Shown piece by piece: positions 3,552 through 44,436 of a stretch of DNA of 64,000 nt; position 1 is the first letter of the stretch; each line of letters starts with the position of its first letter. The notes beneath the pieces are model-generated. The model worked only from the letters and a program-made list of their open reading frames with translations, made no database searches and was not told the DNA's origin. The position numbers were made by a program, and so were the translations under genes. This DNA is from a virus, in IMG/VR virus record IMGVR_UViG_3300021373_003070; one strand, given 5' to 3'.

Positions 3552-3928
3552 TAGTAGTTGTAAAAATGAAGAGCGGCGATTTTATTATGGGCAATCTTAC
3601 AATCACTCATGAATCGAGCATCGAACTAAAGGATGCACTGATCGTTGAAATTGGCAAGAATCCTGCCGGTATCACTGTATACTTCTATAAGTATTGTCCA
3701 TTTAATACCTCATTCGATATCTCTTTGCAGAAAACAGAAATATCTAATATATTTGATGATCCTATTCCATCGTTGTCAGATTATTATAAAGCGCAATGCA
3801 AAATACTAAAGCGCACATATGATTTAAAGCTTGAACAGGATGAACAAGACGAAGAGGATGAGCTAGAGGATGATCCATCTTACGAAGCCTTTTTTGAAAA
3901 ATTGAAGACAGACCCGGAGGTACACTAG
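3548..3928 (+). CDS. Hypothetical protein between uvsW and gp55 (Sm-like N-terminus, acidic tail)
   Basis: Overlapping start/stop on both sides. Confidence 0.65.
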   Translation: MIVVVKMKSGDFIMGNLTITHESSIELKDALIVEIGKNPAGITVYFYKYCPFNTSFDISLQKTEISNIFDDPIPSLSDYYKAQCKILKRTYDLKLEQDEQDEEDELEDDPSYEAFFEKLKTDPEVH

Positions 3929-4437
3929 TGGCCAATTATATCAACAACAAAGAATTTTATGCATTGCTTGTAGATTACAAAGCAAAGTGCAATGAAGCTG
4001 ACCTGAACAGTCAGCCAACGCCTCGTATTCCTGAGGACATTGGCAAATGCTTTATGATGATCGCTACTAAGTTATCGACGAAGGCCAATTTCTCTGGCTA
4101 CACATATAAAGATGAGATGATATGTGATGCTCTCGAAAACTGCATCGTGGCTGTGCATAGTTTCAATCCTGAAAAGTCTAAAAATCCATTCGCTTACTTT
4201 ACTCAAATCATTTGGTATGCATTTCTACGCCGCATCGAGAAAGAAAAGAAACAAACATATGTCAAGTACAAATCTCTCGAGCAATTGGTTGTCGATGCTG
4301 ATCTCTTAGAAGACGATAACTATAAGAATTTTGATATCGCCAACGAGAAGATGAAACCTATTATTGATAAATTTGAACAAAAGAAAGCGAAGAAGCCACC
4401 TGAGAAAAAAGGTTTAGAGAAGTTTACAGATGAGTAA
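3928..4437 (+). CDS. gp55: Late transcription sigma factor gp55
   Basis: YINNKEF, NFSGYTYKDEMI.D, NPFAYFTQI...AFLRRI.KEKKQ. Confidence 0.96.
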   Translation: MANYINNKEFYALLVDYKAKCNEADLNSQPTPRIPEDIGKCFMMIATKLSTKANFSGYTYKDEMICDALENCIVAVHSFNPEKSKNPFAYFTQIIWYAFLRRIEKEKKQTYVKYKSLEQLVVDADLLEDDNYKNFDIANEKMKPIIDKFEQKKAKKPPEKKGLEKFTDE

Positions 4438-9128: not shown

Positions 9129-9466
9129 AAGAATCACTTAAAGTTTTACAAGAATGTGCTGAGGTACAAATCAAAAAGTCTAATGACTATCAAAATGATT
9201 ACTCTCGCATTCGTCAAGCAGACTACTATCCTCGTGGTGTAGCTACTATCACAGATCTCATCTATGCTAAAGTTCTTCGTATGCAATCAGTCATCGAAGC
9301 TAGCGAACGTGATCCAGAATATACACCAAACTTCGAATCAATCGAAGATTCTGCTAAAGATCTAATCAACTATGCATCATTCGTTGTTGCATACATGCGT
9401 GGCCAAATGGATGGCCAAGAAACAAACCGTGACTTCCTTAATCGGGTGATTGATGATTCAGAATAA
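9125..9466 (+). CDS. Nucleotide-modification-associated all-alpha NTP-PPase (Nmad1/DUF1599-like)
   Basis: KKSNDY ... K.LR ... ESIEDSAKDLINYA pattern; adjacent to the hydroxymethylase. Confidence 0.7.
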   Translation: MKESLKVLQECAEVQIKKSNDYQNDYSRIRQADYYPRGVATITDLIYAKVLRMQSVIEASERDPEYTPNFESIEDSAKDLINYASFVVAYMRGQMDGQETNRDFLNRVIDDSE

Positions 9467-10130
9467 AGTACATGATATCCGTTCTTATTTCAAAGAAGCT
9501 TTACACAAAGAACAATTCACAATTGACAAGACTGGTCAAAAGACTATCGAATTAATTGGTGCATCGTTTATTGCAGACGAGCCATCTATCTTTGGTAGAC
9601 CGGTTCAAAAGTATATCGATGCCGAGATCAATTGGTATATTTCTCAATCTACTAACATTCACGATATCTATGATGAAGGTAGAGCACCACCTGAAGCTTG
9701 GAAGTATTCGGCAAATGAACACGGTGAGATCAACTCAAACTATGGCCATCTTATTTACAGTGAAAAGTATGGTAATCAATACCATCGTGTAATGCAAGAA
9801 CTTCTCGCTCATCCGGATGGCCGACGTGCAACAATGATTTATAATCGTCCATCTATATGGAATGAATACAACGAGAATGGTAAGTCAGACTTTATTTGTA
9901 CCAATGCTGTAACTTACTATGTACGTAATGGTAAACTCCACTGTGTGGTTCAGATGCGCTCTAACGATGTGGTTTTCGGTTACAAGAATGACTATGCTTG
10001 GCAGAAATATATACTAGATATGTTGGCTTATGATATTTCTAGTCATCACACACAAATATTTTCTGGTGATATTATGTGGCAGGTTCAAAACCTTCACGTA
10101 TACGAACGACACTTTAAATTGGTGGAATAA
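9450..10130 (+). CDS. gp42: dCMP hydroxymethylase (thymidylate synthase fold, T4 gp42-like)
   Basis: NSNYG, DFICT catalytic Cys, MRSNDVVFGYKNDYAWQ with Asp at the dCMP-specificity position, LHVYERHF. Confidence 0.9.
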   Translation: MMIQNKVHDIRSYFKEALHKEQFTIDKTGQKTIELIGASFIADEPSIFGRPVQKYIDAEINWYISQSTNIHDIYDEGRAPPEAWKYSANEHGEINSNYGHLIYSEKYGNQYHRVMQELLAHPDGRRATMIYNRPSIWNEYNENGKSDFICTNAVTYYVRNGKLHCVVQMRSNDVVFGYKNDYAWQKYILDMLAYDISSHHTQIFSGDIMWQVQNLHVYERHFKLVE

Positions 10131-10854: not shown

Positions 10855-11486
10855 GAGTTGCGTATTACGTCAATGGTAGTATACGTAAGGTAAATCAAAA
10901 CAATTTGCCATACGATCCTATTGATGTGCATACAGATTTTGCCAATAAGATTGGTGCAGATCTCGGAATGTCAACATGGGAAGTAAGTAGTGATCCAAAA
11001 TCAATATCGCTTCAAGAGCTCATGGAATTGCCATTTGAGAGAAGTAAACAGCCGCCGGGTTATTATCCGGATTTGTTCTGGCAACATGTAAATTATTGTG
11101 AATGGGCGGCATGCAATTATGAAGTATATGACGTATTAGTCAGAGGTCGTTGGGATAATATTTACAATGAAGATAACATCGACCTGATCAGTGAAAGCAT
11201 TACGGCGTGTTATACTGATAGAATGGCGTTTGGATTTTGCAACAGTCGATATCGAGCATTAGATGAATCACTCAAAAATATCAATGATCATGTGATTATT
11301 CATCCAGCTAAATCGTTTGATCCGGATTTTACCTCAAATTTCTTTCGTACATTCACCGGCGTATGGGAAGAAATGGGACCAGTAAGACAAAGTCAGCATG
11401 CTGCATGTAAAGCTGAACATATATGGTGGTGGCTACTATGTGGTCGAACAAATTTACCTTACAAGAATATTAGATTATCTGAATGA
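10851..11486 (+). CDS. Putative GT-A-like protein, paralog family member 1
   Basis: RVAYYVNGSIR ... YDVLVRGRWD; paralogous to 39729, 42474, 60768. Confidence 0.55.
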   Translation: MRVAYYVNGSIRKVNQNNLPYDPIDVHTDFANKIGADLGMSTWEVSSDPKSISLQELMELPFERSKQPPGYYPDLFWQHVNYCEWAACNYEVYDVLVRGRWDNIYNEDNIDLISESITACYTDRMAFGFCNSRYRALDESLKNINDHVIIHPAKSFDPDFTSNFFRTFTGVWEEMGPVRQSQHAACKAEHIWWWLLCGRTNLPYKNIRLSE

Positions 11487-12652
11487 TTGAAACTACAAAA
11501 TATTATGATGAATTCATAAGGTACTTCAACTTAGCCTATAAACAGCAAGAGCTATGTAATGTATCTGATAAAGAACCTTATGGCATGGTCGCACATAAGG
11601 ATTCGAATCTCGGTGATGATCTCATGGAGAATGTTGAATTATATGATGTAGTCGAACGCAAATATGCAGGCTTTTCTCAGATCATAAATGATTGTTTTTA
11701 TGGATGGACAGAAGATCATCCATATTGGAAAAAGATGCAGGCGGGCTTGTGTACCCGTCAACGAGAGACCGTCGCCAAAGACTGGACCGGTAAACAAGAC
11801 GTATTCTCTCTTCCTGAATGGCTCTATGTTTTTATCCTTCATAGAGTCACCGGTTCAGCAATTAACTATGCCCAGAAACCATCTGGGTATTTTAACACCA
11901 TCCTCTTCAATCTCCATCAGTGTGATACAATAGAAGAGATGGTGCAGCTGGCGAAGCACTACCCGGTACCCTTCTATACCTCAGTCGGTTACCAGTTCCC
12001 AGCGTTTCCAAAACCAGTCGGCGACTATAAGAAAGGCGGTGATTATTACCTCGGTGAATTTGCCCCTCGATTAGCTCGCGATCTCGCGGACCATTTGACG
12101 ATGGGTCCTCGCAAGGACCTTCGCGAGATTGGTGAGTTTATGCTGAAGTGGAATGAAGACAATGGTCTTCGACGCTATCAGTTTCAATACGCAGCTGTAG
12201 TCGCTGACGTCGCCGACTGGTTTCCTCAATACGTTAACCGTGAAAGCATGTTCTATTACGGTACAAATGCAGTAGAATGTATCTCTTACTTGGCTAAACC
12301 TGTCAAGAAGATGAAAAAAGAGTTGTTCCTTGATGCCGTCATGACGAAAATATATGATGATACAGGAAGTGTACCATATAATGCTGAAGATGTATGTTGC
12401 GACTTCATTCGTTATGTTGAAAATTATGTTCGCCCTGGTCCGGAATATAATCATTTAGATTATGATAATCTGTGGTCGTCATGCGGCATCAAGGATCACC
12501 CTTATGGAAGACAGAAATATATGTTGGATATGGGGTTGATAGAAACTTTTAATGGCATGAAAAATCATCCATCTGATGATGCAATTCTAAAAAATAATGA
12601 AATGACTGTTGAAGAGTACCAACGTAATGTCGCTAACTTACTTTCTAGGTGA
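11483..12652 (+). CDS. Amino acid:DNA transferase / aGPT-pyrophosphorylase-like protein A
   Basis: DDLMENVELYDVVER, FQYAAVVADV...YGTNAVECISYL, NAEDVCCDFIRY resemble aGPT-Pplase motifs; context of gp42 and a PLP enzyme. Confidence 0.6.
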   Translation: MIETTKYYDEFIRYFNLAYKQQELCNVSDKEPYGMVAHKDSNLGDDLMENVELYDVVERKYAGFSQIINDCFYGWTEDHPYWKKMQAGLCTRQRETVAKDWTGKQDVFSLPEWLYVFILHRVTGSAINYAQKPSGYFNTILFNLHQCDTIEEMVQLAKHYPVPFYTSVGYQFPAFPKPVGDYKKGGDYYLGEFAPRLARDLADHLTMGPRKDLREIGEFMLKWNEDNGLRRYQFQYAAVVADVADWFPQYVNRESMFYYGTNAVECISYLAKPVKKMKKELFLDAVMTKIYDDTGSVPYNAEDVCCDFIRYVENYVRPGPEYNHLDYDNLWSSCGIKDHPYGRQKYMLDMGLIETFNGMKNHPSDDAILKNNEMTVEEYQRNVANLLSR

Positions 12653-13619
12653 ACACGAAAATGATATCCAATATCAGAACATTGCTGAGGTGGATTACAA
12701 AAACGGCAAACCTACGTCGTCGTGGTTAAAAGGTTGGTGTCAAGAAGCTCGAACTGAAAAGTTTTTCGAGTTCTGTCGTGGCTACGATGCACGTCAAGAC
12801 TTTTTACTAAAGAACAACTATCAACAATTCTCACATCGATTGCACTGGCACGAATGTCCTTTTGTTGACGAGATGGCACAAGAGAAAGACAGAGTCAAGG
12901 TACTCGAAGCATGCGTTCTCTTCTCATTTAGCAACGAGCATTGGCAAACATTCAGAGCATGGCGTGATCATGGTCAAGACGGTATGAGAGTAAGATTTAC
13001 AAGCTATCGTCATGCTCGTAGCGATCTGTTTCAGATCTACTATCCAAAAGATACGAAGGTCAAAGACTGGCTCATCGAAGCGCCAGCTCGTATTGCACTT
13101 GAGCTCGATTCATTATTCGATGGCATGCGTAGACCGTTCACGATGATGGAATTTGCCAAAAAAATGAACATCATCATGGTCCGCGATTTTGGTTTTCGTA
13201 ATGCCATGTACCCGTCAAAGAATGCAGCGCGACATGTAGCGATGAGCCATCCTGAGTGGGTTGATCCTGACTCGTTCTTACATGGTGGTACAGGATACTT
13301 CGATGGTTTGTCGCAGATCTTTGACTGTCCACATCTTATGTCAAGATCAAAGTATGAGATTGATGAGGATGGTGAATACGTACCGATGAATAAATGGGCA
13401 GAGATGCAGATCCAACACATGGACTATCTCAAAAATCATCCTAGCAATCCTATTCATACACATCAGTATCTCAACTTAGAAGACAAGCTATGTATGCATT
13501 ACAAGTTTATGTCAATGAAGCTAGGTTCTAAAAAGCAAACAAAGATGATACCATATAACTGGGTGTATCCAGAGAATTGGTCTCTTAAAACAAATAGGTA
13601 TGATCGTGGCACACAATAA
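12627..13619 (+). CDS. Amino acid:DNA transferase / aGPT-pyrophosphorylase-like protein B (paralog of A)
   Basis: DFLLKNNYQQFSHR, HPEWVDPDSFLHGGTG, NLEDKLCMHYKF parallel protein A; ATG 12627 gives N-terminal MSLTYFL. Confidence 0.55.
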   Translation: MSLTYFLGEHENDIQYQNIAEVDYKNGKPTSSWLKGWCQEARTEKFFEFCRGYDARQDFLLKNNYQQFSHRLHWHECPFVDEMAQEKDRVKVLEACVLFSFSNEHWQTFRAWRDHGQDGMRVRFTSYRHARSDLFQIYYPKDTKVKDWLIEAPARIALELDSLFDGMRRPFTMMEFAKKMNIIMVRDFGFRNAMYPSKNAARHVAMSHPEWVDPDSFLHGGTGYFDGLSQIFDCPHLMSRSKYEIDEDGEYVPMNKWAEMQIQHMDYLKNHPSNPIHTHQYLNLEDKLCMHYKFMSMKLGSKKQTKMIPYNWVYPENWSLKTNRYDRGTQ

Positions 13620-14490
13620 TCATGTAATCGATGGCGTCAACAAAGACGTAGGAGTTTTTGGCTATGAAGCAGCAAAAGAATACTACTTATCTCTCACTGA
13701 AGGATGGGAACCATTCAATCCAGATCCCGTTGTCCGTGAACATGAAGGAGTACGGGTCGTTAGAGATGACCTTATCATGGGGACAAAATCGCGAGCTGGC
13801 GATCTCCTTGCCTTCAAAGCCCCTGCCGAAACGTTGGTATACTGTCAGCCAAGGACTGGACTCGCTGGGGTATCGTTATTAGATGTAGCTAAACATCACA
13901 ATCGTAAGGTTGTCTTGTTTATGCCATCATCAAAGAGAGTATCACATCATCAGGCATGTTGTATAGAACGTGGAGCAGAAGTGCATTTCCATCGTATTGC
14001 AGCGATGCCAAATCTTAACAAAAAGGCAAAAGAATATGCAGAAAAACATGGATACTTTTTCATCCCTCTTGGTCTTAGACACGAGTACGCTACCGCCGCA
14101 ATTGTACACGCAGCTAGTAAAATACCTGAGCCAGATGAAGTGTACGTTGCTACTTCGACTGGAGTTCTCAATCGCGCTCTTCAAATTGCATGGCCAAATG
14201 CTCGTATCAATGGTATTGCCGTCGCTCGTAACATGAAGGCCGGCGAGCTAGGTCGATCTACCATTACATCAGAACCTTTGCCATTCATAAAAGCAGAGAA
14301 GAAAGAAAATCTACCACCGTTCCCGTCCATCGACACATATGATGGTAAGGTGTGGAAATACATTCCAAAAAATAGTGGTAAAAATATACTTTTTTGGAAT
14401 GTAGGTACTGAACCTAGTTTACAAGATGATACAATCTATGATAGAATAGATTCATATCGCGATTGGGAGAAAAATAATGCATCAGCGTAG
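13600..14490 (+). CDS. PLP-dependent enzyme, fold type II
   Basis: VVRDDLIMGTKSR (PLP Lys), ATSTG phosphate loop, YDGKVW, LFWNVG. Confidence 0.8.
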   Translation: MIVAHNNHVIDGVNKDVGVFGYEAAKEYYLSLTEGWEPFNPDPVVREHEGVRVVRDDLIMGTKSRAGDLLAFKAPAETLVYCQPRTGLAGVSLLDVAKHHNRKVVLFMPSSKRVSHHQACCIERGAEVHFHRIAAMPNLNKKAKEYAEKHGYFFIPLGLRHEYATAAIVHAASKIPEPDEVYVATSTGVLNRALQIAWPNARINGIAVARNMKAGELGRSTITSEPLPFIKAEKKENLPPFPSIDTYDGKVWKYIPKNSGKNILFWNVGTEPSLQDDTIYDRIDSYRDWEKNNASA

Positions 14491-15580
14491 TGGATTAGTA
14501 GCAACACCTTTTATTACAATCTCACGCCAATTAAGTAGCCATAGAGCTGCGCAAGGTGTTATATATGCCGATCAATTACAAGAAGCTAACGTTGGCCAGA
14601 TTAAAGTCAACATGACAGGGGACCAATACGAAAGTGAATTCAGTAATTATGATGACCTGTATGTATATCATGGCAATGATTGGAGTGGCAATATTAATCT
14701 TTTTGGCGGTCTCAATAATTTCCCTTATATTGAAAACTTTGTCAATTTCTCTAGATTTACTGGTAAAGTGTATTCCCTTGTTATTGATATGCCTGATTAT
14801 TATGGCCTTATGAAAGAGAAGTTCGACAAGGCTAAAGAAAAAGGCAAAGAATGGAATCCTTTATGGGATGGCATCGATTGGGATAATCTCAAACGAATGT
14901 GTGAAACTGCCGAAACGATTGTGCCTAACGAACTACACAAATTTACAAAAATGTCTGTCGGTGATAGTCATGCAATATGCATGTATCGCCCGGGCTGGAA
15001 CAATCTATCCGTACCATTCAAGACATTACACGGCGCATTGAAAGAAGGACTCGAATCATTTCTCGAAGATAGAACATATACACATCTAGAATTTTACTTT
15101 GGCAACATCGATGTAAGACATCACCTTTGTCGTCAAGATGATCCTGTAGCTGCCACACGACAACTCGTTGCAGAGTATATGAAGCAGGCTCATGCCATTG
15201 CACAGAAGTATAATTGCAAAATTCGTATCTACGAACTCCTGCCAATCGAAGCAGAAACACGATCTATTCCAAAAACTGGTTGGTATAAAGGTACGCCGTT
15301 CTATGGCTCTCGTCAAGAGAGAAATGATATTCGCAAGTTGTTCAAAGAAGAAGTAAGAAAGAGATGCACAGACGAGGTGCAACTTTACGAGTGGATTGGT
15401 GAGATGGTTAACTCGAGAGGTGAACTCGATTTTGAGTTTATGGAACGACCTCAGTCAGTACATTTATCTCGTCGTTGGTATCCACATTGGCAAGGCTATC
15501 AGTGGAGTCACGCTCCGTATGTTGAATATATACCTACAGCAGAGCGAGAAACAACTACACTTGAGGATTTTTTTAGCTAA
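14477..15580 (+). CDS. SGNH/GDSL-fold protein with C-terminal clamp-binding-like peptide
   Basis: VGDSH (block I), FGNID (block III), SVHL (block V); ends TLEDFFS. Confidence 0.55.
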   Translation: MHQRSGLVATPFITISRQLSSHRAAQGVIYADQLQEANVGQIKVNMTGDQYESEFSNYDDLYVYHGNDWSGNINLFGGLNNFPYIENFVNFSRFTGKVYSLVIDMPDYYGLMKEKFDKAKEKGKEWNPLWDGIDWDNLKRMCETAETIVPNELHKFTKMSVGDSHAICMYRPGWNNLSVPFKTLHGALKEGLESFLEDRTYTHLEFYFGNIDVRHHLCRQDDPVAATRQLVAEYMKQAHAIAQKYNCKIRIYELLPIEAETRSIPKTGWYKGTPFYGSRQERNDIRKLFKEEVRKRCTDEVQLYEWIGEMVNSRGELDFEFMERPQSVHLSRRWYPHWQGYQWSHAPYVEYIPTAERETTTLEDFFS

Positions 15581-16788
15581 TGAAGCATGCGACTATTATT
15601 CCATTAATTGGAGGTGAAGTGCTCGCCTCCGAAAAGGTGTTCGGCCATAAGCCGGATTATATCCTATCATATAATGCGTTTCAAGCAAACGAAGAGCACC
15701 TACTAAATTATTGGAATCATGAGGTACCGTACTACGTACTCGACGAAGGGGATCGCCACCCCCATCCCGTAGACGTAGTGTCCAGTGTATGTCCTTGTGC
15801 TGGCTTGTCATTGTTCAGCACGCGTTATGGAGAGGACAACAAAAACAATCGCTGGATGATTGAAACGGCTAAGTACGTTCTTGGCGAGATCAAGCCTCTT
15901 GTATTTTGGGGAGAGAATGCCCCAACCTTCACCGGTAAAATCGGTGCACCAATTCGAAATCAACTTATCGAAGTTGGTAAAGAACACGGTTATGTTATGT
16001 CAATGTTTAAGACAAAAAGTCTTTTGCACGGCATACCACAAACACGCGAACGTACATTCTACTTCTTCTGGAAAGGAGACAAGGTACCAGTGTTTGACTA
16101 CTATCGTAGAGACATGACATCAATCGAAGATCTTATACTGAGTGTCGATCGTGATCCTAAGGATCCGATGTCTGAAGTCATTAATAGAACCAAACCAACA
16201 GACAATCCTTTCTACAAATATTTACTTGAGGAGATTCACGGTGGAATATCTCATCGCGATCATTTTGATTCCATTGATGTGCGGGACCCTTCAACTCCTA
16301 ATTATCTTGATGTATATAGCCTCATTGAAAGCCATAAACACGACTACGTCCGTGTTGGAAAATGGCTGGAAAATAAAGGCTATGACCGCGAATCGAAGCG
16401 AGCTTATCGAATGTATGATAAGTTGGAGTCAGGTGGTAATATTATGCGCCGCGGCACTATTCTGCCTAAAGGTCATATCGGATCATTTGTAGGTCACTAT
16501 CCTCAGATGCTAACACATCCACATGAAGATCGATACATTACATTTCGAGAAGCAATGACAATCATGGGTCTGCCTGAAGATTATCAGCTTCTCAATCCTC
16601 GTGGTAGCTTCAATCATATATGTCAGAATGTACCTTATCAGACAGCTGTAGATATGGCTACCGAAGTAAAGGCAGCAATCGAAGGTCAACGACCATGGGT
16701 TGATGCTAACGTTTCTTTGCAGCAAAACACATCTAAAAAGTTTGAAATTTTAGACAAAGAAGAATCTACACTTGAATCATTTTTCTAG
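15580..16788 (+). CDS. DNA cytosine-C5 methyltransferase-fold protein with degenerate SAM motif
   Basis: PCAGLS (IV), ENA (VI), PQTRER (VIII), RYITFREA...GLPEDY (IX); motif I reads IPLIGG; ends TLESFF. Confidence 0.8.
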   Translation: MKHATIIPLIGGEVLASEKVFGHKPDYILSYNAFQANEEHLLNYWNHEVPYYVLDEGDRHPHPVDVVSSVCPCAGLSLFSTRYGEDNKNNRWMIETAKYVLGEIKPLVFWGENAPTFTGKIGAPIRNQLIEVGKEHGYVMSMFKTKSLLHGIPQTRERTFYFFWKGDKVPVFDYYRRDMTSIEDLILSVDRDPKDPMSEVINRTKPTDNPFYKYLLEEIHGGISHRDHFDSIDVRDPSTPNYLDVYSLIESHKHDYVRVGKWLENKGYDRESKRAYRMYDKLESGGNIMRRGTILPKGHIGSFVGHYPQMLTHPHEDRYITFREAMTIMGLPEDYQLLNPRGSFNHICQNVPYQTAVDMATEVKAAIEGQRPWVDANVSLQQNTSKKFEILDKEESTLESFF

Positions 16789-16846: not shown

Positions 16847-17824
16847 ATGGAAATCAATGTACCAGTCGAAGAACTTCGCCAATATAAGGTGATGATTGGC
16901 ACACCAATGTACGGGGCTCAATGCTCAGGTATGTACACGCGATCGATGGCAGAGTTAACAACTACGATGCAGCGATATGGTGTTCCGATGCAATTTTATT
17001 TCTTGTTCAATGAATCTCTTATTACTCGAGCACGTAACTATTGTGTTGATGAGTTTATGCGATCTGATTGCACGCATCTTATGTTCATCGATTCTGACAT
17101 CTCATTTAAAGCACAAGATGTACTATCGATGCTAGCTATTATGCATCAACGACAAGAAATGGATGTGTGTTGTGCACCATATCCGAAGAAGACAATTGCA
17201 TGGGAAAAAATTACTCAGGCTGTCAAGAGTGGTGTCGCTGACGAAGATCCAAATGTCCTCGAAAATTTTGTTGGTGATTATGTCTTCAATCCAATCAGAC
17301 CCAAAGAAAAGGGTGAACACTTTATCAAGTTATCAGAACCAACCGAAGTAGCAGAAGGTGGTACTGGTTTTATGATGATCAAGCGAGAAACGTTTGACAA
17401 GTATAAAGAAACATATCCACAATTTATGTATCGACCAGATCATGTTCGAACTGCACATTTTGATGGTTCAACAGAAATCATGGCATATTTCGATGCATTG
17501 ATTGATGATAAATCACAGAATCTAATACCTGAAATAAAAGCATTCTTTAAGAAGAATCCGAATGCTAAGAACAATGATGTCGTCAGGTTCCTTGAAGATA
17601 AGACAAAGGGTATCGATCAGAAGCAATACTCGAATCGATACCTGTCAGAAGATTACATGTTTTGTTATAATGTAAGACGTGCAGGAATGAAAGTATTCAT
17701 GTGTCCTTGGATGGAATTGAAACATATGGGTGCATACGTATTCGGTGGTTCTCTTGCAGCTCTCGCATCAGTTGGTGCAGCGGCTACAGCGGATCCTGAA
17801 AAACTTGGAAAGAAAAAAGGATAA
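16847..17824 (+). CDS. GT-A fold glycosyltransferase
   Basis: GTPMYG, ESLITRARN, FIDSD (DxD), GTGFMMIKR, YLSEDY.FC. Confidence 0.85.
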   Translation: MEINVPVEELRQYKVMIGTPMYGAQCSGMYTRSMAELTTTMQRYGVPMQFYFLFNESLITRARNYCVDEFMRSDCTHLMFIDSDISFKAQDVLSMLAIMHQRQEMDVCCAPYPKKTIAWEKITQAVKSGVADEDPNVLENFVGDYVFNPIRPKEKGEHFIKLSEPTEVAEGGTGFMMIKRETFDKYKETYPQFMYRPDHVRTAHFDGSTEIMAYFDALIDDKSQNLIPEIKAFFKKNPNAKNNDVVRFLEDKTKGIDQKQYSNRYLSEDYMFCYNVRRAGMKVFMCPWMELKHMGAYVFGGSLAALASVGAAATADPEKLGKKKG

Positions 17825-17832
17825 ATTATATT

Positions 17833-18486
17833 ATGAAACTCAACCAACGCTCGGTACAAATTCTCAAGAATTTTTCTACCATTAATCCGTCAATTCAGTT
17901 TCGAGAAGGTAATGCTCTCAAGACTATTTCGCCAAACAAAACCATTATGGCGAAAGCAGTTCTCGAAGATCAGATTCCACAAGACTTTGCAATCTATGAC
18001 TTGTCGCGATTCTTAGGAGTGTCATCTTTGTTCGAAGATCCTGATTATGTACTCGCTGATCGCAATGTTGTGATTGCGGCACCGGGACGACAGGTAAGTT
18101 ATACTTTCGCTGATCCTAATACGATCGTGTCAGCTCCAAACAAAGACATTGATATTGGTGATGTCGATGTGCAGTTCGAACTGAAGCAAGAAGTATTTGC
18201 CGAAGTAATGAAAGCACTCGGTGTGATGAGCTTTCCTGAAGTTGTAGTTGCAGGCGAAAATGGTCGAATTGTTTTACGCGCAACTGATACGAAGAATCCA
18301 TCAGCAGATAAATATGACATTGAAGTTGGTGAAACAGATCTTGAATTCACCTCTGTCTTCAAATCCGAGAATCTCAAAATCTTATCTGGCAACTATGTTG
18401 TTGGTATCTCATCGAAAGGTATCTCACACTTCCGCGGTGATGATGTAGAATATTGGATCTCGATCGAATCGAACTCTGCTTTTTAA
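17833..18486 (+). CDS. gp45: DNA polymerase sliding clamp gp45
   Basis: ILKNFSTINPSI, FAIYDLSRFL, YWISIE. Confidence 0.95.
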   Translation: MKLNQRSVQILKNFSTINPSIQFREGNALKTISPNKTIMAKAVLEDQIPQDFAIYDLSRFLGVSSLFEDPDYVLADRNVVIAAPGRQVSYTFADPNTIVSAPNKDIDIGDVDVQFELKQEVFAEVMKALGVMSFPEVVVAGENGRIVLRATDTKNPSADKYDIEVGETDLEFTSVFKSENLKILSGNYVVGISSKGISHFRGDDVEYWISIESNSAF

Positions 18487-18588: not shown

Positions 18589-18900
18589 ATGTCTGAAGAA
18601 AAATATCATCCTGCTGACACTAATGGTGATGGCAAGGTAAGCAAAGAAGAAGAATTGCTGTATCTGGAATTCAAGCGAAAAGAACTTGAAGATGCTGATG
18701 CGATGCGTGATGCTCAGCGTAATATGACTTGGTTTGCACTGGCTGGTCTTCTCTTATATCCATTCGCTGTCGTATTGACAGATATTATAGATCTTGAACA
18801 AGCTGCCAAAATCCTTGGTGATATGGCTGCTACTTATTTTGTTTCCGTTGCCGGTATTGTTGCGGCGTTTTTTGGAGCGCAGGCTTGGAGCAAAAAGTAA
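18589..18900 (+). CDS. EF-hand plus two-TM membrane protein
   Basis: DTNGDGKVSKEE EF-hand loop; two hydrophobic helices. Confidence 0.75.
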   Translation: MSEEKYHPADTNGDGKVSKEEELLYLEFKRKELEDADAMRDAQRNMTWFALAGLLLYPFAVVLTDIIDLEQAAKILGDMAATYFVSVAGIVAAFFGAQAWSKK

Positions 18901-19584
18901 ATGAGACATATGATCATATTCATTATGTTTCTGCTTTTATCAGGATCTGTAGCTGCTGAAAAAAGTATTCGTGAAGATTACATAGAACCATCAGAACCAG
19001 TTGAAGATATTGTCGATCCTAACAATGAACAGAACGGCGATTTAAATTCTAATCAACAAAATTCAAACAATAACAATAGAAGTACAACTAATATTGGTGC
19101 AGGAGCAGGAGCTCCGACGCCAGTACCTACGGCTATCGCTCCATCTCTCATGTCGTCTGGGAGTGATACCTGTTTACAAAGTCGAGGAACCGGTGTGCAA
19201 TTATTAGATATCGGAGTTTCGCGTGGAGCATATAAGCAAGATGAAGAATGTAACCGACGACGTGACGCGAAAGTCTTCAAAGATTTAGGCATGGTGCTAC
19301 CAGCAGTTAGTCGCATGTGTCAAAATGAAGACAATTGGAAAGCCATGTTTTCATCAGGCAATCCATGTCCGATATTAGTGGCCGGTAAAATGGTCTTTGG
19401 TAAGAGAGCCGTGCTGGCAATGAGAAACCAGCCAACGGTTTATATTCCTGATTACGATGAAAATAGAACTTACTACGACACAGTTTTAGGAATAGGACAA
19501 AAAGATGAAAAATCTGAAAAATCTGATGATGAGCGTAGCATTAGTGAGCGGTTCCGCACTAGCGGGTCCAGTACAGTGGAATAG
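18901..19584 (+). CDS. Secreted Cys-containing hypothetical protein
   Basis: Signal peptide, Asn-rich linker, TAIAPS...DTC...EECNRRR...MCQ...PCP. Confidence 0.7.
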   Translation: MRHMIIFIMFLLLSGSVAAEKSIREDYIEPSEPVEDIVDPNNEQNGDLNSNQQNSNNNNRSTTNIGAGAGAPTPVPTAIAPSLMSSGSDTCLQSRGTGVQLLDIGVSRGAYKQDEECNRRRDAKVFKDLGMVLPAVSRMCQNEDNWKAMFSSGNPCPILVAGKMVFGKRAVLAMRNQPTVYIPDYDENRTYYDTVLGIGQKDEKSEKSDDERSISERFRTSGSSTVE

Positions 19585-20440
19585 CGTCGATAACCTCGTA
19601 ACTGCTTCCGGTAGTATCAATACAACTTTAGACGCCGCTATTAAGCGTGTTGGTGGTGTACAAAGTGGAATTGGTGTTTCTGCTGGTAACATTACGCCCG
19701 ATGGATTCCTAGAAACTTCTGCTACGTTGTTAACGAGTGCACAGCAAGATGCCTACAACCTTGCTGTCTTGGAAGTCACCGCGGATGTATTTTCGAAAAC
19801 AGCAGCAGAGTATTTTGCTGAAGAGTATGAAACTGCGGGTATTAGCTTTAGTGAAGCAGTTGATGCATTCGTCAATGCTACTACAGCTATCGCAATTGCA
19901 AGTCATGTAGGAAATATGGCAACACAGGTACAAACATCCGGTGATGCTATTCAAGGTCAACAACTACAGGCGTATGTTCAGAACAACTCTGTTTTGATTA
20001 CGACTGCAGAACTTGATGCCTTTAACAACTCGCAAACTGCATTGCAAGATGCAGCTGATCAGTATGCTGCGGTTGCCGCAGTATATAATGATGCGCAAAT
20101 GATTTCTAATTTCCAGACTAACGCTGATTTAAACGGTGTAGATTTCTTGAATGCTGATTCAGTATTCTTAGATCGTATCGAAAATCAAGGGCTCACTGGC
20201 TTTCAGGCTGGTGTCGTAGTTGACTTTACATCAACTGCAAGCTTGATGTTAGTTGAAGATATTAGTGCTAATATTGAAACGACAAACTTCTTTGTTAACG
20301 CAGGTGCCACGAGCTTCTTTTATACACAAGGCCCAACACAAGATGTTGACACAACTTGTTCTGTTGTAAATGGTGTACTCACTGGTACATTCCAAAACGA
20401 AGATCCTGCAATGCCATGTTACATTGAACCAATGCCATAG
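19505..20440 (+). CDS. Secreted Ala/Thr/Gln-rich helical protein
   Basis: Signal peptide MKNLKNLMMSVALVSGSALA. Confidence 0.7.
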   Translation: MKNLKNLMMSVALVSGSALAGPVQWNSVDNLVTASGSINTTLDAAIKRVGGVQSGIGVSAGNITPDGFLETSATLLTSAQQDAYNLAVLEVTADVFSKTAAEYFAEEYETAGISFSEAVDAFVNATTAIAIASHVGNMATQVQTSGDAIQGQQLQAYVQNNSVLITTAELDAFNNSQTALQDAADQYAAVAAVYNDAQMISNFQTNADLNGVDFLNADSVFLDRIENQGLTGFQAGVVVDFTSTASLMLVEDISANIETTNFFVNAGATSFFYTQGPTQDVDTTCSVVNGVLTGTFQNEDPAMPCYIEPMP

Positions 20441-20449
20441 GAAACTAAA

Positions 20450-20992
20450 ATGTCAATAGAAGAAATGGAACTAAATGTTGGCGGTACATCATTCAAAGGT
20501 GTATGGCTAGCAGTGCTTCTTTCATTTTCTTCTACACTTGGAGGCGGTATTTGGGCCGCCTCTGAGTTCTTCTCACGACTAAATTTGTTAGAGGAAACGG
20601 TAGAAGAATCGCTAAAAAATACTGAGCTAGTATCTGCTCGTTTCAATGATCTCAAGGAAGAGATTGATGAAGACTTAAATGATGCTGATGTAGAAATAAA
20701 CAAAGTGACTCAACAACTCTTAGACAATGATGTAGCTGGTCTACAAGGCAAGTTAGCAACACTAGGTACAAACCTAAAAAGTATTATGGATCGACAACAA
20801 GAACTGATTACACTTGGTGAACGTATTGTCGAAGTTGAGAAAAAAATAACCGAAACTGAAACACTCGTTTCGAAAGCTGAGATACTCTTTAAAGATGCAG
20901 ATAAAATCAACAATAAACTAGATGTGATTCAAAAAGAGATCGACGATTTATGGAACGGCCTCGATTATCTTTCGAATCCATACGGGAGCTAA
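20450..20992 (+). CDS. Membrane-anchored coiled-coil protein
   Basis: N-terminal TM, heptad pattern, ends LDYLSNP. Confidence 0.7.
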   Translation: MSIEEMELNVGGTSFKGVWLAVLLSFSSTLGGGIWAASEFFSRLNLLEETVEESLKNTELVSARFNDLKEEIDEDLNDADVEINKVTQQLLDNDVAGLQGKLATLGTNLKSIMDRQQELITLGERIVEVEKKITETETLVSKAEILFKDADKINNKLDVIQKEIDDLWNGLDYLSNPYGS

Positions 20993-20993
20993 T

Positions 20994-21179
20994 ATGACTG
21001 GATTTATTTTCTCTTTGTGGGAGTGGGTCAACGCGTTGACTCTACTAAGCGTAATGTGTTCGGCCTTTGTTGCCGCGACACCAACACCAAAAGACGATGA
21101 GCTGTGGGGAAAGATCTATAAGTATATAGATGTCTTCGCACTCAACATAGGCAAGGCAAAAGATAAGTACAGCCTATAA
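20994..21179 (+). CDS. Small membrane protein (holin-like)
   Basis: Hydrophobic helix, AATPTPKDD, ALNIGKAK. Confidence 0.6.
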   Translation: MTGFIFSLWEWVNALTLLSVMCSAFVAATPTPKDDELWGKIYKYIDVFALNIGKAKDKYSL

Positions 21180-21244: not shown

Positions 21245-22183
21245 ATGAATGATGATTTTTTATGGGTAGAAAAGTATCGGCCACGTACTGTCGCTGATAC
21301 TATTCTACCAGTCCAACTTCAACAAACGTTTCAACAGTTCGTTGATGATGGTAATGTACCAAATCTTATCCTCACCGGTACTGCCGGTGTGGGTAAGACT
21401 ACTATCGCAAAAGCCATGCTCGAGCAACTCGATTGCGATTACATCGTTATCAACGGTTCGATGAATGGCAATATCGATACACTTCGCAACGATATCATGT
21501 CGTTCGCATCATCGGTATCTCTTCAAGGTGGTCGTAAGTATGTGATCCTCGACGAGGCAGATTACCTTAATCCAAACTCAACTCAACCAGCTCTTCGTAA
21601 TTTCATGGAAGAGTTCTCCAAAAACTGTGGCTTCATCCTCACATGTAATTTCAAGAATAAGATCATCGATCCACTACATTCTAGATGTAGCGTTGTTGAG
21701 TTTAAGCTTGACAAAGAACAACGTATGGAATGTGCAGCACAGATGTTCAAGCGTACATGCACTATCCTTGATAGCGAGAACGTTGATTATGACAAAGCAG
21801 TTGTTGTTGAAGTAGTCAAGAAACACTTCCCTGACAATCGTCGTATTCTCAACGAGCTACAACGATATTCTGCAACTGGTCGTGTCGATACAGGCATTCT
21901 TACCAATTTGCAAGAAGTGACTCTCGACAATCTACTCAAATCTCTCAAAGAAAAAGACTATACCTCGGTTCGTAAGTGGGTAGCAGACAACAGCGATGCT
22001 GATAATACTGTCATCTTTCGTCGACTGTATGACAAATGTTCAGACTTCATGGAAAGCGGTTCGATACCTCAGCTCGTTCTTATTCTCGCTGACTATCAAT
22101 ACAAGGCTGCATTCGTTGCTGACCATGAAATAAATATGACTGCATGTCTCACTGAAATTATGGCGAATTGCTCATTTAAATGA
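21245..22183 (+). CDS. gp44: Clamp loader large subunit gp44
   Basis: LWVEKYRP, GTAGVGKT, ILDEAD, PLHSRC. Confidence 0.97.
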   Translation: MNDDFLWVEKYRPRTVADTILPVQLQQTFQQFVDDGNVPNLILTGTAGVGKTTIAKAMLEQLDCDYIVINGSMNGNIDTLRNDIMSFASSVSLQGGRKYVILDEADYLNPNSTQPALRNFMEEFSKNCGFILTCNFKNKIIDPLHSRCSVVEFKLDKEQRMECAAQMFKRTCTILDSENVDYDKAVVVEVVKKHFPDNRRILNELQRYSATGRVDTGILTNLQEVTLDNLLKSLKEKDYTSVRKWVADNSDADNTVIFRRLYDKCSDFMESGSIPQLVLILADYQYKAAFVADHEINMTACLTEIMANCSFK

Positions 22184-22701
22184 TTGTTGTTCCTAAGTTC
22201 CTCACTCTCGATACCTGTCTCAATATCACTCGTGAATTGGATGACAGGCTATTGAAAGAAGGAATGTGGAAAATTAACAAGAACAACTGGGCAGATCATC
22301 TTACTCGAGGCTTTGACGGAGCTGTATATCTTGCAGATTTCAGAGACCACATGGCACAAGATGACAAAAAGATTTGTTGGAAAATACAGAATAGTGGTTA
22401 CTTCGATCGTAGGATCAATTGGCAAAAGACAAGATTGGTCATGCAAGTATGGGACACTGGCTCAGGTTGTAACTGGCACGCCGACAATCATGTTGACTTT
22501 GCCTGTACCATTTATCTCAACGATAGATGGCAAGAGGAATGGGGTGGTCTGTTAAAATATAGACCGAAAGACGAAGACAAGTATGTCATACCAGATACAG
22601 GTACAATGGTCATCAACACTGATCAAACCTACCATATGGTCACTGAACAGAAGGCTCCATTCTATCGATACACTTTGCAATGTTTTGGAACATACGAATG
22701 A
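22180..22701 (+). CDS. 2OG-Fe(II) oxygenase (prolyl-4-hydroxylase-like)
   Basis: WHAD, IYLN..W..EWGG.L, HMV, R.TLQ.F. Confidence 0.85.
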   Translation: MIVVPKFLTLDTCLNITRELDDRLLKEGMWKINKNNWADHLTRGFDGAVYLADFRDHMAQDDKKICWKIQNSGYFDRRINWQKTRLVMQVWDTGSGCNWHADNHVDFACTIYLNDRWQEEWGGLLKYRPKDEDKYVIPDTGTMVINTDQTYHMVTEQKAPFYRYTLQCFGTYE

Positions 22702-22883
22702 AAATATTTAAGAACAAGAGACCACTGTGCGAAGTAGCTGCATGTAGTAACTTTTTAGAAGACGATCCAGTCATCATCTATCTCGACGAACATGAGTTTA
22801 AAGTTTGTAACGAATGTAGTATGGTATTAGAAGCAATAACGACCAAATTTGAAGAGCGAGAAGACGATGTCGAATCCATTTGA
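22698..22883 (+). CDS. Small Cys-containing hypothetical protein
   Basis: CEVAAC...VCNEC; overlaps both neighbours. Confidence 0.5.
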   Translation: MKIFKNKRPLCEVAACSNFLEDDPVIIYLDEHEFKVCNECSMVLEAITTKFEEREDDVESI

Positions 22884-36032: not shown

Positions 36033-38585
36033 ATGACTAAATTTTATACTAATATCGATCAGCACGGTTCGCAGATACTCGTACGTGGCTATAATGAAGA
36101 TGGCACACCTTTTCAACATAAAGAGAGATACGAACCTTATTTGTTTATGCGATCTCAGGTTGAGACCGGTTACACAGATATTTATGGTAATCATGTCAAA
36201 CGCATGGACTTTCCTAACATCGGCGAAGCCAAGCAGTTTCGCAAGAAATACGAAGACGTTGAAGGTGTAGACATCTACGGTCTTGAACGATATAAGTGTG
36301 TCTATATTTATGACAACTTTCGAAATCAAGTACCTGATACATCACGTATCAACATTGTCAACATAGATATCGAGGTTGCATCCGATGATGGTTTTCCAGA
36401 ACCTGAAGATGCCGACAAAGAAGTAACAGCCATTGGCTTACGAGATCGTACTAAAACAGTTGTGCTTGGTTGTGGTGAATTTAAACATGACGATCCTAAT
36501 ACCTACTACGTAAAGTGTAAGAACGAGATTGAGCTACTCGATAAGTTCTTGAACATATGGCAGCATATGAATCCTGACGTAGTCACAGGTTGGAACACAG
36601 AATTCTTTGATATTCCATATCTTGTCCATCGCATTGCAAAGTGTGGTGCACTTGGCGAAGAAGCACTTAAAAGATTTTCTCCATGGAATCTGCCACTACG
36701 TAAAGGTAGTGTGTTTCGGCCTGGCAGCGACAAAGCTTCAACGACATATCGCATCATCGGTGTAGCAAGTCTTGATTATCTGTCAATCTACAAAAAGTTT
36801 AGATTGCAACCGCGTGAATCATACAAGCTCGATTTCATTGCCGAGACAGAACTTGGTACCAAAAAGATTGACTATAGCGAGTATGGCAATCTACACGAGT
36901 TGTACAAAAACAACTATCAAAAGTTTATCGAATACAACATTCGAGATATTGATCTGATCTTTGATCTCGAAGAAAAGCTAGGTTTCATCGAACAAGTATT
37001 TACTGTCGCATATGATGCTGGCGTCAACTATGAAGACACGCTCGGTTCGGTAGGCATATGGGATGTGATTATTCACAACTATCTCATGGACCAAAACATT
37101 GCGGTGTCAGACAAAGTCAACGCCATATCAGATAGACAGATCGAAGGTGGTTACGTCAAAGAACCAATCGTTGGCATGCACAAGTGGGTGATGTCATTTG
37201 ACCTCAACTCGCTGTATCCTCACTTAATTCAACAATACAACATATCACCTGATACAGGTCTCAATAAGTTTGACGACCTCTTTCATATTACTTCGCGTGC
37301 ATCAGTCGACAATATCTTATCAGAAGAAATTGACTTTAGCGAATTAAAATCTTACAACGTAACCATGACACCGAATGGCAAGATCTATCGACGTGATCGT
37401 CAAGGCTTCTTACCTGCATTGATGAAGAAGATGTATGATGATCGTGTATTGTACAAGAAGAAGATGTTGGAATGCAAACAAGAAGCAATCAAGAATCCAA
37501 GCCGACAACTTGAGATTGACATCTCTCGCTATCACAACTTACAACACGCCAAAAAGATTCAGCTAAACTCAGCTTATGGTGCACTTGCCAACAAATACTT
37601 CAGATGGTTCGATAACGAGAATGCCGAGGCTATCACCATGGCTGGTCAGTTGTCTATTCGTTGGATCGAAAAGAAGATCAACATATGGTTGAATGACATA
37701 CTCAAAACCAAAGGTCGTGACTACGTCATAGCGATCGATACCGATTCAGTATATGTGTCATTCGATAAGATGATCGAACTTACCAATCCAAAGAATCCTG
37801 TTGAATTTCTTGACAAGGTGGCACAGCAACAAGTCGAACCATTCATCGATAAGTCTTATCGTGAGCTAGCCGATTATCTCAATGCATATGATCAGAAGAT
37901 GATTATGAAACGAGAAAACATCGCTGATAAGGCAATCTGGACTGCCAAGAAGCGATACATCATGAACGTATGGGACTCTGAAGGTGTACGATACGAAAAG
38001 CCAGATCTCAAGATGATGGGTATCGAGGCCATTCGATCAAGTACACCAGCGGTATGTCGTGATTACATTAAGAATACGTTGCAGCTTATCATGTCAACCA
38101 GTGAAGCTGATGTGCAAAAATATATTGCTCACATTCGCGAAGAGTTCCGCACATTACCATTCGAAAAAGTTGCATTCCCTCGATCATGTAACTTCGTAAA
38201 GTGGCAAACAAACTCACATACAGGTCAGCGATATCCATCTACATATGCTGATGATAAGACAATCTACAAGAAAGCAACACCTATTCAAGTCAAAGGTGCT
38301 CTACTATACAACTGGTACTTACATAAATATAACTTGACAAAGAAGTATGAACTCATAAAATCAGGCGAGAAAATTAAGTTTTGTTATCTACGAAAACCAA
38401 ACTCATTTCGAGATTCGGTTGTTTCGTGTCCTGATATTTTGCCATCGGAGTTTGGCTTGGAACAGTATATCGATTACGATACACAATTCGTAAAAGGTTA
38501 TCTCGATCCAATTGAAATCATACTACATGCAATCGGTTGGAAGTCTGAAAAGATTTCTACATTGGAGGACTTTTTCAGTGACTAA
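36033..38585 (+). CDS. gp43: Family B DNA polymerase gp43
   Basis: DIEV exo I, FDLNSLYP, KIQLNSAYG, DTDS; ends TLEDFFSD. Confidence 0.98.
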   Translation: MTKFYTNIDQHGSQILVRGYNEDGTPFQHKERYEPYLFMRSQVETGYTDIYGNHVKRMDFPNIGEAKQFRKKYEDVEGVDIYGLERYKCVYIYDNFRNQVPDTSRINIVNIDIEVASDDGFPEPEDADKEVTAIGLRDRTKTVVLGCGEFKHDDPNTYYVKCKNEIELLDKFLNIWQHMNPDVVTGWNTEFFDIPYLVHRIAKCGALGEEALKRFSPWNLPLRKGSVFRPGSDKASTTYRIIGVASLDYLSIYKKFRLQPRESYKLDFIAETELGTKKIDYSEYGNLHELYKNNYQKFIEYNIRDIDLIFDLEEKLGFIEQVFTVAYDAGVNYEDTLGSVGIWDVIIHNYLMDQNIAVSDKVNAISDRQIEGGYVKEPIVGMHKWVMSFDLNSLYPHLIQQYNISPDTGLNKFDDLFHITSRASVDNILSEEIDFSELKSYNVTMTPNGKIYRRDRQGFLPALMKKMYDDRVLYKKKMLECKQEAIKNPSRQLEIDISRYHNLQHAKKIQLNSAYGALANKYFRWFDNENAEAITMAGQLSIRWIEKKINIWLNDILKTKGRDYVIAIDTDSVYVSFDKMIELTNPKNPVEFLDKVAQQQVEPFIDKSYRELADYLNAYDQKMIMKRENIADKAIWTAKKRYIMNVWDSEGVRYEKPDLKMMGIEAIRSSTPAVCRDYIKNTLQLIMSTSEADVQKYIAHIREEFRTLPFEKVAFPRSCNFVKWQTNSHTGQRYPSTYADDKTIYKKATPIQVKGALLYNWYLHKYNLTKKYELIKSGEKIKFCYLRKPNSFRDSVVSCPDILPSEFGLEQYIDYDTQFVKGYLDPIEIILHAIGWKSEKISTLEDFFSD

Positions 38586-43782: not shown

Positions 43783-44436
43783 ATGATTGGTAAAAATAAA
43801 TATGGTTCGTATTCGGTACCTGAGAGTTCTTCTTGGCGTGTTTGCGCGCAGCAAATACTTGCCGGTAAAGTATACGAGCCTGATACAATCTCTTATATGA
43901 TCGAAAATTGTGGTGATGGTAGTATCATACATGCCGGCACATATTTTGGTGACTTCTTACCTGCCCTTTCACGGCACTGTCAAAACACAGTCTATGCATT
44001 CGAACCTAACACAGAAAATTATGAGCATGCTAGAGCGACATGTGACATGAATGATTGTTGGAATGTGGACCTTCATCACTATGCGTTAGGCAATGATGAA
44101 ACGATGGTCAACTTAGAAGTCACATCTCATGGTAGATCTGCCGGCGGCATTAGTAAAGTCGTATCATTTGCTTCAGACAAAACTGAAAGAGTCAAACAGG
44201 TTAGACTCGATGATGTTATACCAGACGAACCTATCAGTATTCTGCAACTCGATGTCGAAGGACACGAAGCATTGGCCATCGAAGGTGCTTTACGTATCAT
44301 CGAAGAAAATAATCCTATTATTATTGTTGAAGGCAAAAATGCATTCGACATACTACAACAACTTGAGTACAAATTAATCAAACACATACATCTAAATACT
44401 GTATGGAAACGAACATTAAATAATGGAGAGACTTAA
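43783..44436 (+). CDS. FkbM-family methyltransferase
   Basis: HAGTYFG, AFEP, ALG, LDVEGHE, PIIIVE. Confidence 0.85.
   Translation: MIGKNKYGSYSVPESSSWRVCAQQILAGKVYEPDTISYMIENCGDGSIIHAGTYFGDFLPALSRHCQNTVYAFEPNTENYEHARATCDMNDCWNVDLHHYALGNDETMVNLEVTSHGRSAGGISKVVSFASDKTERVKQVRLDDVIPDEPISILQLDVEGHEALAIEGALRIIEENNPIIIVEGKNAFDILQQLEYKLIKHIHLNTVWKRTLNNGET

Follow-up and report, generated by a model that had tools for sequence, protein, structure and literature searches.

The eukaryotic enzyme DNMT1, which has a C5-methyltransferase fold, binds the replication clamp PCNA by a PIP box, and its modification of DNA follows replication. Phages T4 and RB69 tether proteins to their own clamp, gp45, through short hydrophobic-acidic peptides that sit at the very end of the chain, set off by a flexible linker. 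In T4, such peptides form the C-terminal ends of the DNA polymerase gp43 (ASLDFLFG), the late sigma factor gp55 (PSLDFLYEAND) and gp33 (NTLDFLL). The gp43 tail of T4 and RB69 binds gp45 (PMC2988020, PMC3012046) and the RB69 tail has been crystallised in a hydrophobic gp45 pocket (Y39, I107, F109, W199 and V217, plus R32 and K204; PMC3012046); the T4 gp55 peptide stands behind a divergent, dispensable linker, and T4 gp45 ligands have interchangeable tails that compete for three sites (PMC2988020). The peptide can also be N-terminal, as in T4 RNase H, whose gp45 binding is abolished when its N-terminal peptide is removed (PMC3012046). T4 alpha-glucosyltransferase (alpha-GT), a phage DNA-modification enzyme, binds gp45 as well (Sommer et al. 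2004; PMC13216743). Bacterial beta-clamp motifs (Q-phi-x-[LM]-[FL]) are likewise short linear motifs at a terminus, the C-terminus for Pol II and Pol IV and the N-terminus for Hda, and bring a variety of enzymes to a clamp "toolbelt" (PMC11139829). Here we describe a 64,000-nt stretch of viral DNA (IMG/VR virus record IMGVR_UViG_3300021373_003070; the window hereafter) in which a DNA-modification gene cluster between gene 46 and gene 45 encodes at least two, and probably three, enzymes that carry the polymerase's clamp-holding peptide, suggesting that the phage DNA is modified by enzymes riding the replication clamp.

As in T4 and RB69, the peptides in this locus are short, hydrophobic-acidic, terminal and preceded by flexible linkers, but their carriers are base-modification enzymes rather than replication or transcription proteins, and the motif has the PIP-like spacing L-x-x-F-F where T4 has L-D-F-L-F. 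T4 alpha-GT is encoded in the same neighbourhood (genes 55, 47, 46 and 45) and ends ...KEQFDIITK, without a polymerase-type tail, whereas here an explicit docking peptide is predicted on several enzymes with thousands of metagenomic homologues. DNMT1 works with a different clamp in a different kingdom, and its motif is internal, not terminal. The beta-clamp motifs belong to another clamp family with another consensus, and only an SGNH subfamily described below, which ends Q-T-L-[AS]-L-F, resembles them.

A polymerase-type ending on modification enzymes

Translation of the window gave closely similar C-terminal ends for gp43 (...KISTLEDFFSD), for a two-domain protein with an SGNH/GDSL fold (the SGNH protein; ...ETTTLEDFFS) and for a C5-pyrimidine methyltransferase-like (MT-like) protein (...EESTLESFF), and a like pattern, MSLTYFL, at the N-terminus of an amino-acid:DNA-transferase-like protein, here called transferase B. 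A first-pass annotation of this DNA had placed peptides at these termini, and its positions were borne out for all four proteins. Across the 674 stop-to-stop open reading frames (ORFs) of at least 40 residues, the pattern [ST]L[ED]xF[FL]x0-2$ matched three, namely gp43, the SGNH protein and the MT-like protein. Shuffling the last 40 residues of 71 window genes gave a mean of 0.0013 matches, and three or more arose in 0 of 20,000 shuffles; the shared C-terminal ending is real and far from chance. The same three proteins are the sole real genes with this ending in the closest relative found here, the complete 163.7-kb IMG/VR contig 3300023178_000009 (G001; protein identity 83-87%). Synonymous codons differ among the three tails, which rules out recent DNA copying as their origin and indicates that selection acts on the peptide. 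The tails do not match the canonical PIP box Qxx[LIM]xx[FY][FY]: at position -3, where that box has Gln three residues ahead of the aliphatic position, they have T, E and I, and the PIP-like portion consists of the h-x-x-a-a core only.

HMMER aligned the window gp43 end (...gwksekiSTLEDF) position for position to that of T4 gp43 (...mdyeekASLDFL) at the extreme C-terminus, confirming it as the positional homologue of the T4 clamp-binding tail. Window gp55 ends in GLEKFTDE, the same type of ending as in T4 gp55, and gp55 homologues on related contigs end GIEIFVEGD and GIEKFIKDD....

We next considered how well the tails are kept. At E <= 1e-5 there are 977 metagenomic homologues of the SGNH protein and 2324 of the MT-like protein, and conservation was scored on the best 120 of each (identity 47-90% and 52-90%, respectively) with the pattern [LIVM]xx[FYW][FLIMYW]x0-3$, using internal pseudo-termini as control. 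The pattern was present in 86% of these SGNH homologues against 5.5% at internal pseudo-termini, and in 93% of the MT-like homologues against 3%, so the terminal motif is kept in about 90% of each set behind variable linkers, the outcome that clamp docking called for. Most pattern-negative homologues had variants (VMGLFA, LESLFE) or the motif followed by four or five extra residues; the SGNH variant VMGLFA is carried by IMG/VR contigs too short to include gp43. Within the motif, Leu occupies position 0 in about 90%, Glu +1 in about 70% and Phe +3 in 99%. Ahead of it, a stretch of 10-25 residues varies freely in length and sequence in both families, and in nearly all homologues only 0-2 residues follow.

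Pairing within genomes tied the enzyme endings to the polymerase ending. In 16 IMG/VR genomes that hold gp43 plus enzymes, gp43 ends [STN]L[EQD]x[FYW]F in all 16, and the tail is present on 15 of 16 SGNH proteins and on all 11 MT-like proteins. The cognate pattern of the window (TLEDFF, TLESFF, TLEDFF) recurs in these genomes. Homologues of the cluster's pyridoxal phosphate (PLP) enzyme end ATLAGF, ATLASFQ or NSLHSFI in some lineages (loci L054, L056-L058, L064 and L017), and this enzyme seems to have come by a like peptide independently in several lineages.

Transferase B carries its candidate peptide at the opposite end. The ATG at 12627 is its conserved start, several homologues having a stop immediately upstream, and most of 39 distinct homologues begin with the pattern M-x-[STN]-L-x-x-[FL]-[LIFMY] (for example MNSLAEFM, MSSLVEFY and MQSTLTQFI), after which comes a variable stretch of five or six residues. 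The AlphaFold 2 (AF2) model of transferase B has a pLDDT of 86 overall, below 50 for residues 1-6, with coil to residue 23; the MSLTYFL motif is hence both conserved among homologues and predicted to be disordered, in line with clamp docking. T4 RNase H begins MDLEMML, the same pattern, and because it binds gp45 by this terminus, an N-terminal clamp peptide has direct precedent. The nearest fold to transferase B, a match that is weak for a helical protein (Foldseek E 0.02; VIA Z 9.6, root-mean-square deviation (rmsd) 4.1, 224 residues aligned), is PaMx11 gp46/PUGT (8z2n), a 5-phosphomethyl-dU glycinyltransferase that acts on DNA (PMC11472151). The next matches are helix-hairpin-helix DNA glycosylases at Z 6-7, and transferase B had no match in Pfam, PHROG or NCBIfam.

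Some other proteins of the window and its relatives were compared with these carriers. UvsX (window 44436-45491) was rejected as a further carrier, as its EVEDFLSA ending is kept in close relatives only; UvsX of G001 ends EIEDFLTNEV, and in more distant homologues the UvsX tail is simply acidic. In G001 (L098:17733-18677) and in a second relative, G004 (21887-22840), gp32 has an acidic stretch and then SL[DE]FF near, not at, its C-terminus. BLAST did not find gp33 in the relatives, and the RNase H homologues of G001 and G004 are without the N-terminal extension present in T4.

Tail types across phage lineages

If the tails serve a clamp, those of the enzymes should change type with that of the polymerase. 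Aeromonas phage Aes012 pairs a gp43 ending NNLFDMFDI with a stand-alone SGNH homologue, Aes012_228, whose end is KTLELFDI, and in Aeromonas phage 44RR2.8t (L001) a 795-aa protein ending SLDGLFAI includes the SGNH domain as a fusion. Enzyme tails appear to track the polymerase tail type across lineages, both in the 16 paired genomes and in Aes012. Clamp docking also predicts that distant homologues lack the tail where no T4-type polymerase tail is found, and this was observed in two phages. Searches of cyanophage S-TIM5 gave no gp45-like clamp and no gp43-like polymerase, and its MT-like homologue is tail-less; searches of Tenacibaculum phage PTm5 gave only a weak gp43 match that ends before the tail region is reached, and the SGNH homologue there is tail-less.

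The SGNH homologue of Aes012 (L192, 148209-155045) stands in a row with UDP-galactopyranose mutase and a 358-aa protein ending SCLDLIMA. The 795-aa protein of 44RR2.8t adjoins a sodium:solute symporter, and in it a Lys-rich linker follows the SGNH domain, then ...ATADFLAL, which may be an internalised former tail.

A separate, abundant SGNH subfamily (loci L195-L274, on IMG/VR contigs up to 176 kb) is about 35% identical to the window SGNH protein and ends QTLALF, QTLSLF, QTMSLF or QSNALF, with a final LF in 79 of 80 loci. Phages of the QTLSLF type have a gp43-like polymerase with a Lys-rich tail and without the T4-type motif. On contigs of this subfamily we found no gp45-like or DnaN-like clamp, a negative that shows nothing because these contigs are only 43-61% complete.

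The tailed enzymes

The AF2 model of the SGNH protein (pLDDT 88) turns to coil from about residue 345 and closes in a short terminal helix of pLDDT 57, so that its C-terminus, like the N-terminus of transferase B, lies outside the folded domains. Its residues G162-D163-S164-H165 (GDSH) and H329, a candidate for the His of the block V Asp-x-x-His pair, are invariant in 26 sequences, and the SGNH fold together with the block I GDS(H) serine places it in the SGNH/GDSL superfamily. Residues ~153-354 align to 2hsj with VIA Z 13.9 and rmsd 2.8 over 167 residues, and Foldseek matched platelet-activating factor acetylhydrolase, sialate O-acetylesterase and carbohydrate esterases at E 3e-6 to 1e-3; the domain also resembles peptidoglycan O-acetyltransferases, and matches to esterases and O-acetyltransferases have Z 10-14. 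The Aes012 homologue lies two genes from the UDP-galactopyranose mutase gene, and the window gene lies close to a glycosyltransferase-like gene. Given these fold matches and sugar-gene neighbours, a reasonable guess is that the enzyme acylates or deacylates a sugar or hydroxymethyl base in DNA. That this protein works on DNA at all is a reasonable but indirect conclusion.

The MT-like protein matches PF00145 at 58.2 bits against a curated cut-off of 22 and has catalytic Pro-Cys and ENV-like motifs. In alignment with 3g7u, its PCAGLS pairs with PCQGFS and its ENAP with ENVP, and a QxRxR-like motif aligns too. Motif I is not covered by the Pfam match, which starts at residue 63, and the N-terminus of the protein reads IIPLIGGE.

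Clamp docking and its alternatives

We consider it likely that the terminal peptides of the SGNH protein, the MT-like protein and transferase B dock on gp45, and that the clamp carries these modification enzymes along the phage DNA. The SGNH and MT-like proteins end, after a flexible linker, in [ST]LExFF, PIP-like as in gp43, and transferase B has a like pattern at its predicted disordered N-terminus. These peptides would fit into the hydrophobic pocket that the trimeric gp45 clamp has on its C-face. Once gp44/62 had loaded it on phage DNA, the clamp would carry the modification enzymes beside or after the polymerase, and by sliding them along new duplex DNA it would provide one-dimensional scanning that could complete base modification fast and at every site before host nucleases meet unmodified DNA. 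The first-pass annotation had proposed that the enzymes dock on gp45 and modify DNA at the fork. Wherever they were testable, the sequence-level predictions of docking held; the qualifier "at the fork" goes further than the data do, since clamps that stay on DNA behind the fork would do as well.

A broader version of this proposal, towards which we lean slightly less than we lean away, is that the entire post-replicative hypermodification pathway works as a "modification toolbelt" built on the clamp. The polymerase peptide would have been acquired, at either terminus, by each of three or four unrelated enzymes (SGNH, C5-MTase-like, amino-acid:DNA-transferase-like and, in some lineages, the PLP enzyme), and the tail would have been swapped to match the clamp: LExFF in marine T4-likes, L..LFDI in Aeromonas phages and beta-clamp-like QTLSLF in a group of large marine phages.

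The clamp side of the proposed contact can be examined in gp45, which in the window is related to T4 gp45 (1czd, E 6e-25) and RB69 gp45 (1b77/1b8h, E 2e-22). HMMER alignment maps the RB69 pocket to M39, I106, I108 and W208, the last corresponding to RB69 V217. In genomes with gp45 W208, motif position +3 was Phe in 40 of 40 tails. Tyr or Trp at +3 was seen, in three different proteins, only in genomes with L208 (gp43 TLEDWFA, MT TLVEYFM, SGNH TLLEYFV) or Y208 (gp43 SLESYFY, MT YLMEYIS). Acidic residues at +1/+2 occurred in 54 of 60 tails with gp45 K/R36 and in 6 of 13 with S/N36 (odds ratio 10.5, Fisher p 0.001). Both comparisons are exploratory: the gp45 positions were picked post hoc, the clades are few and the counts are uncorrected for phylogeny.

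These limits on the co-variation count against clamp docking, as do several further observations. The motif is so conserved in the marine group that co-variation hangs on few clades; position 208 is tied to the RB69 pocket by sequence alignment alone, and position 36 lies outside the published pocket residues. In one of the 16 paired genomes (G005; L069/L091) gp43 is tailed (VTLEQFFT), yet the SGNH homologue is tail-less, its sequence breaking off right behind the catalytic domain (...WNDSQTK). Pseudoalteromonas phage XG4 encodes gp45 together with a tailed gp43 (SLDDLFM), yet its MT-like protein, 29% identical, is tail-less. T4 alpha-GT, which shows no obvious polymerase-type tail, still binds gp45, so clamp binding can do without one, and gp32 of relatives has a similar acidic-hydrophobic ending, ESLDFF..., which makes another replisome partner conceivable. 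As to gene position, the G005 SGNH gene adjoins uvsX, not gp45.

Another common replisome partner, which might be gp32, gp59 or a nucleotide-precursor complex bound by the gp43 tail likewise, is in our judgement unlikely to be what the shared peptide binds in place of the clamp. Endings of similar flavour do occur: gp32 (phrog_224) of relatives ends DDDDESLDFFRKLANE or DDESLEFFKKLAG, T4 gp32 ends DLDDLLNDL and window UvsX ends EVEDFLSA. The gp32 motif, however, is spaced L-x-F-F, not L-x-x-F-F, and is non-terminal, with six more residues after it, which counts against gp32 as an alternative hub. The UvsX ending is not conserved in relatives, the gp43 tail sits at the exact position of the T4 and RB69 tail, the one crystallised in the gp45 pocket (PMC3012046), and gp55, a known clamp ligand in T4, has the same kind of tail in the window. 

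Should the tails indeed dock on gp45, they could do so mainly to regulate, competing with gp43, gp55 or gp33 for clamp sites so as to time replication or late transcription, or to hold enzymes in the replication zone, with no processive scanning. The competition of T4 ligands for three sites (PMC2988020) speaks for this, as does the finding that in T4 how tightly alpha-GT binds gp45 is not what sets the proportion of alpha-glucosylation (PMC13216743). We nevertheless find a mainly regulatory role improbable: enzymes with no catalytic kinship share the tail within a single cluster, in some lineages including the PLP enzyme, which fits substrate delivery better, and no regulatory domain is evident. 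Short amphipathic termini are also common, and the endings might have a structural or other unrelated role, as an oligomerisation helix or degron for example, and resemble the polymerase tail by coincidence. This is the least credible alternative and a very improbable one, given a chance expectation of 0.001 against the 3 matches observed, the conservation of the endings behind variable, disordered linkers, their lineage-specific switch to the Aeromonas type and their loss in the outgroup phages, in which searches gave no T4-type polymerase tail.

Genomic context

All genes of the window lie on the plus strand, in the order gp55, gp47, gp46, modification cluster, gp45, five small membrane-type genes, gp44/62, regA, gp43, UvsX, gp41 (Table 1). 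A near-identity DNA search of 50,697 phage records gave no match to the window, and its gp43 is about 49% identical to cyanomyovirus gp43; the source is therefore read, from its sequence, as an uncultured marine T4-like myovirus. The cognate gp45 clamp and the clamp loader gp44/62 are both encoded in the window, the loader being assigned by ORF and gene order, and gp45 lies just downstream of the cluster, where the first-pass annotation had put it. The five small genes (18589-21179), which have signal-peptide or transmembrane-like N-termini, separate gp45 from gp44; genes 45, 44 and 62 are contiguous in the T4 genome. The glycosyltransferase-like protein and its homologues share a conserved Lys-rich C-terminal tail (...ADPSKLGKKK), unlike the clamp-type ending and possibly DNA-binding.

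Table 1. Features of the window, with positions counted from its first nucleotide.
Feature	Positions	Strand	Basis or remark
gp55 late sigma factor	3928-4437	+	phrog_234
gp55 tail GLEKFTDE	4411-4434	+	known clamp-binding position in T4 gp55
Thymidylate-synthase-like hydroxymethylase	9450-10130	+	modification cluster
Unannotated protein, amino-acid:DNA-transferase-like	11483-12652	+	one of two such in the cluster
Transferase B, 330 aa, amino-acid:DNA-transferase-like	12627-13619	+	predicted fold
Transferase B N-terminal peptide MSLTYFL, candidate clamp-binding motif	12627-12647	+	
PLP-enzyme-like protein	13600-14490	+	phrog_7093; without tail in the window
SGNH protein, two-domain enzyme, 367 aa, C-terminal domain of SGNH/GDSL fold	14477-15580	+	phrog_13881
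SGNH variable linker, residues ~345-359, between SGNH domain and tail	15509-15553	+	predicted coil
SGNH C-terminal peptide TTLEDFFS	15554-15577	+	translation
MT-like protein, C5-pyrimidine methyltransferase-like, 402 aa	15580-16788	+	PF00145
MT-like C-terminal peptide STLESFF	16765-16785	+	translation
Glycosyltransferase-like protein	16847-17824	+	phrog_1574 and weak PF13506 match; without motif
gp45 sliding clamp, proposed docking platform	17833-18486	+	PF09116, phrog_223
gp44 and gp62 clamp loader	21245-22701	+	ORFs, gene order and AAA+ Walker motif GTAGVGKTT in translation only
gp43 family-B DNA polymerase, 850 aa	36033-38585	+	PF00136, PF03104
gp43 C-terminal peptide STLEDFFSD, reference clamp-binding tail	38556-38582	+	aligns to T4 gp43 tail

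Implications

Clamp-bound modification enzymes are already known in principle from T4 alpha-GT and DNMT1, and we rate the shared polymerase-type peptide on phage enzymes as a variant of that principle; in the literature searched, no polymerase-type clamp peptide on a phage base-modification enzyme was described. Phage hypermodification pathways are being discovered fast, and enzymes that act on free nucleotides are often hard to tell apart from those that act on DNA. In uncultured phages, a clamp peptide would be an inexpensive way to recognise DNA-acting enzymes from sequence, and here it would assign an otherwise uninformative SGNH-fold protein to DNA. If the whole pathway is assembled on the clamp, terminal clamp peptides would become a general genomic marker for enzymes working on DNA rather than on nucleotides. 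For the phage, one-dimensional scanning on the clamp would provide a route to near-complete modification before host nucleases act, and the clamp "toolbelt" concept would extend from replication, repair and late transcription to phage base modification.

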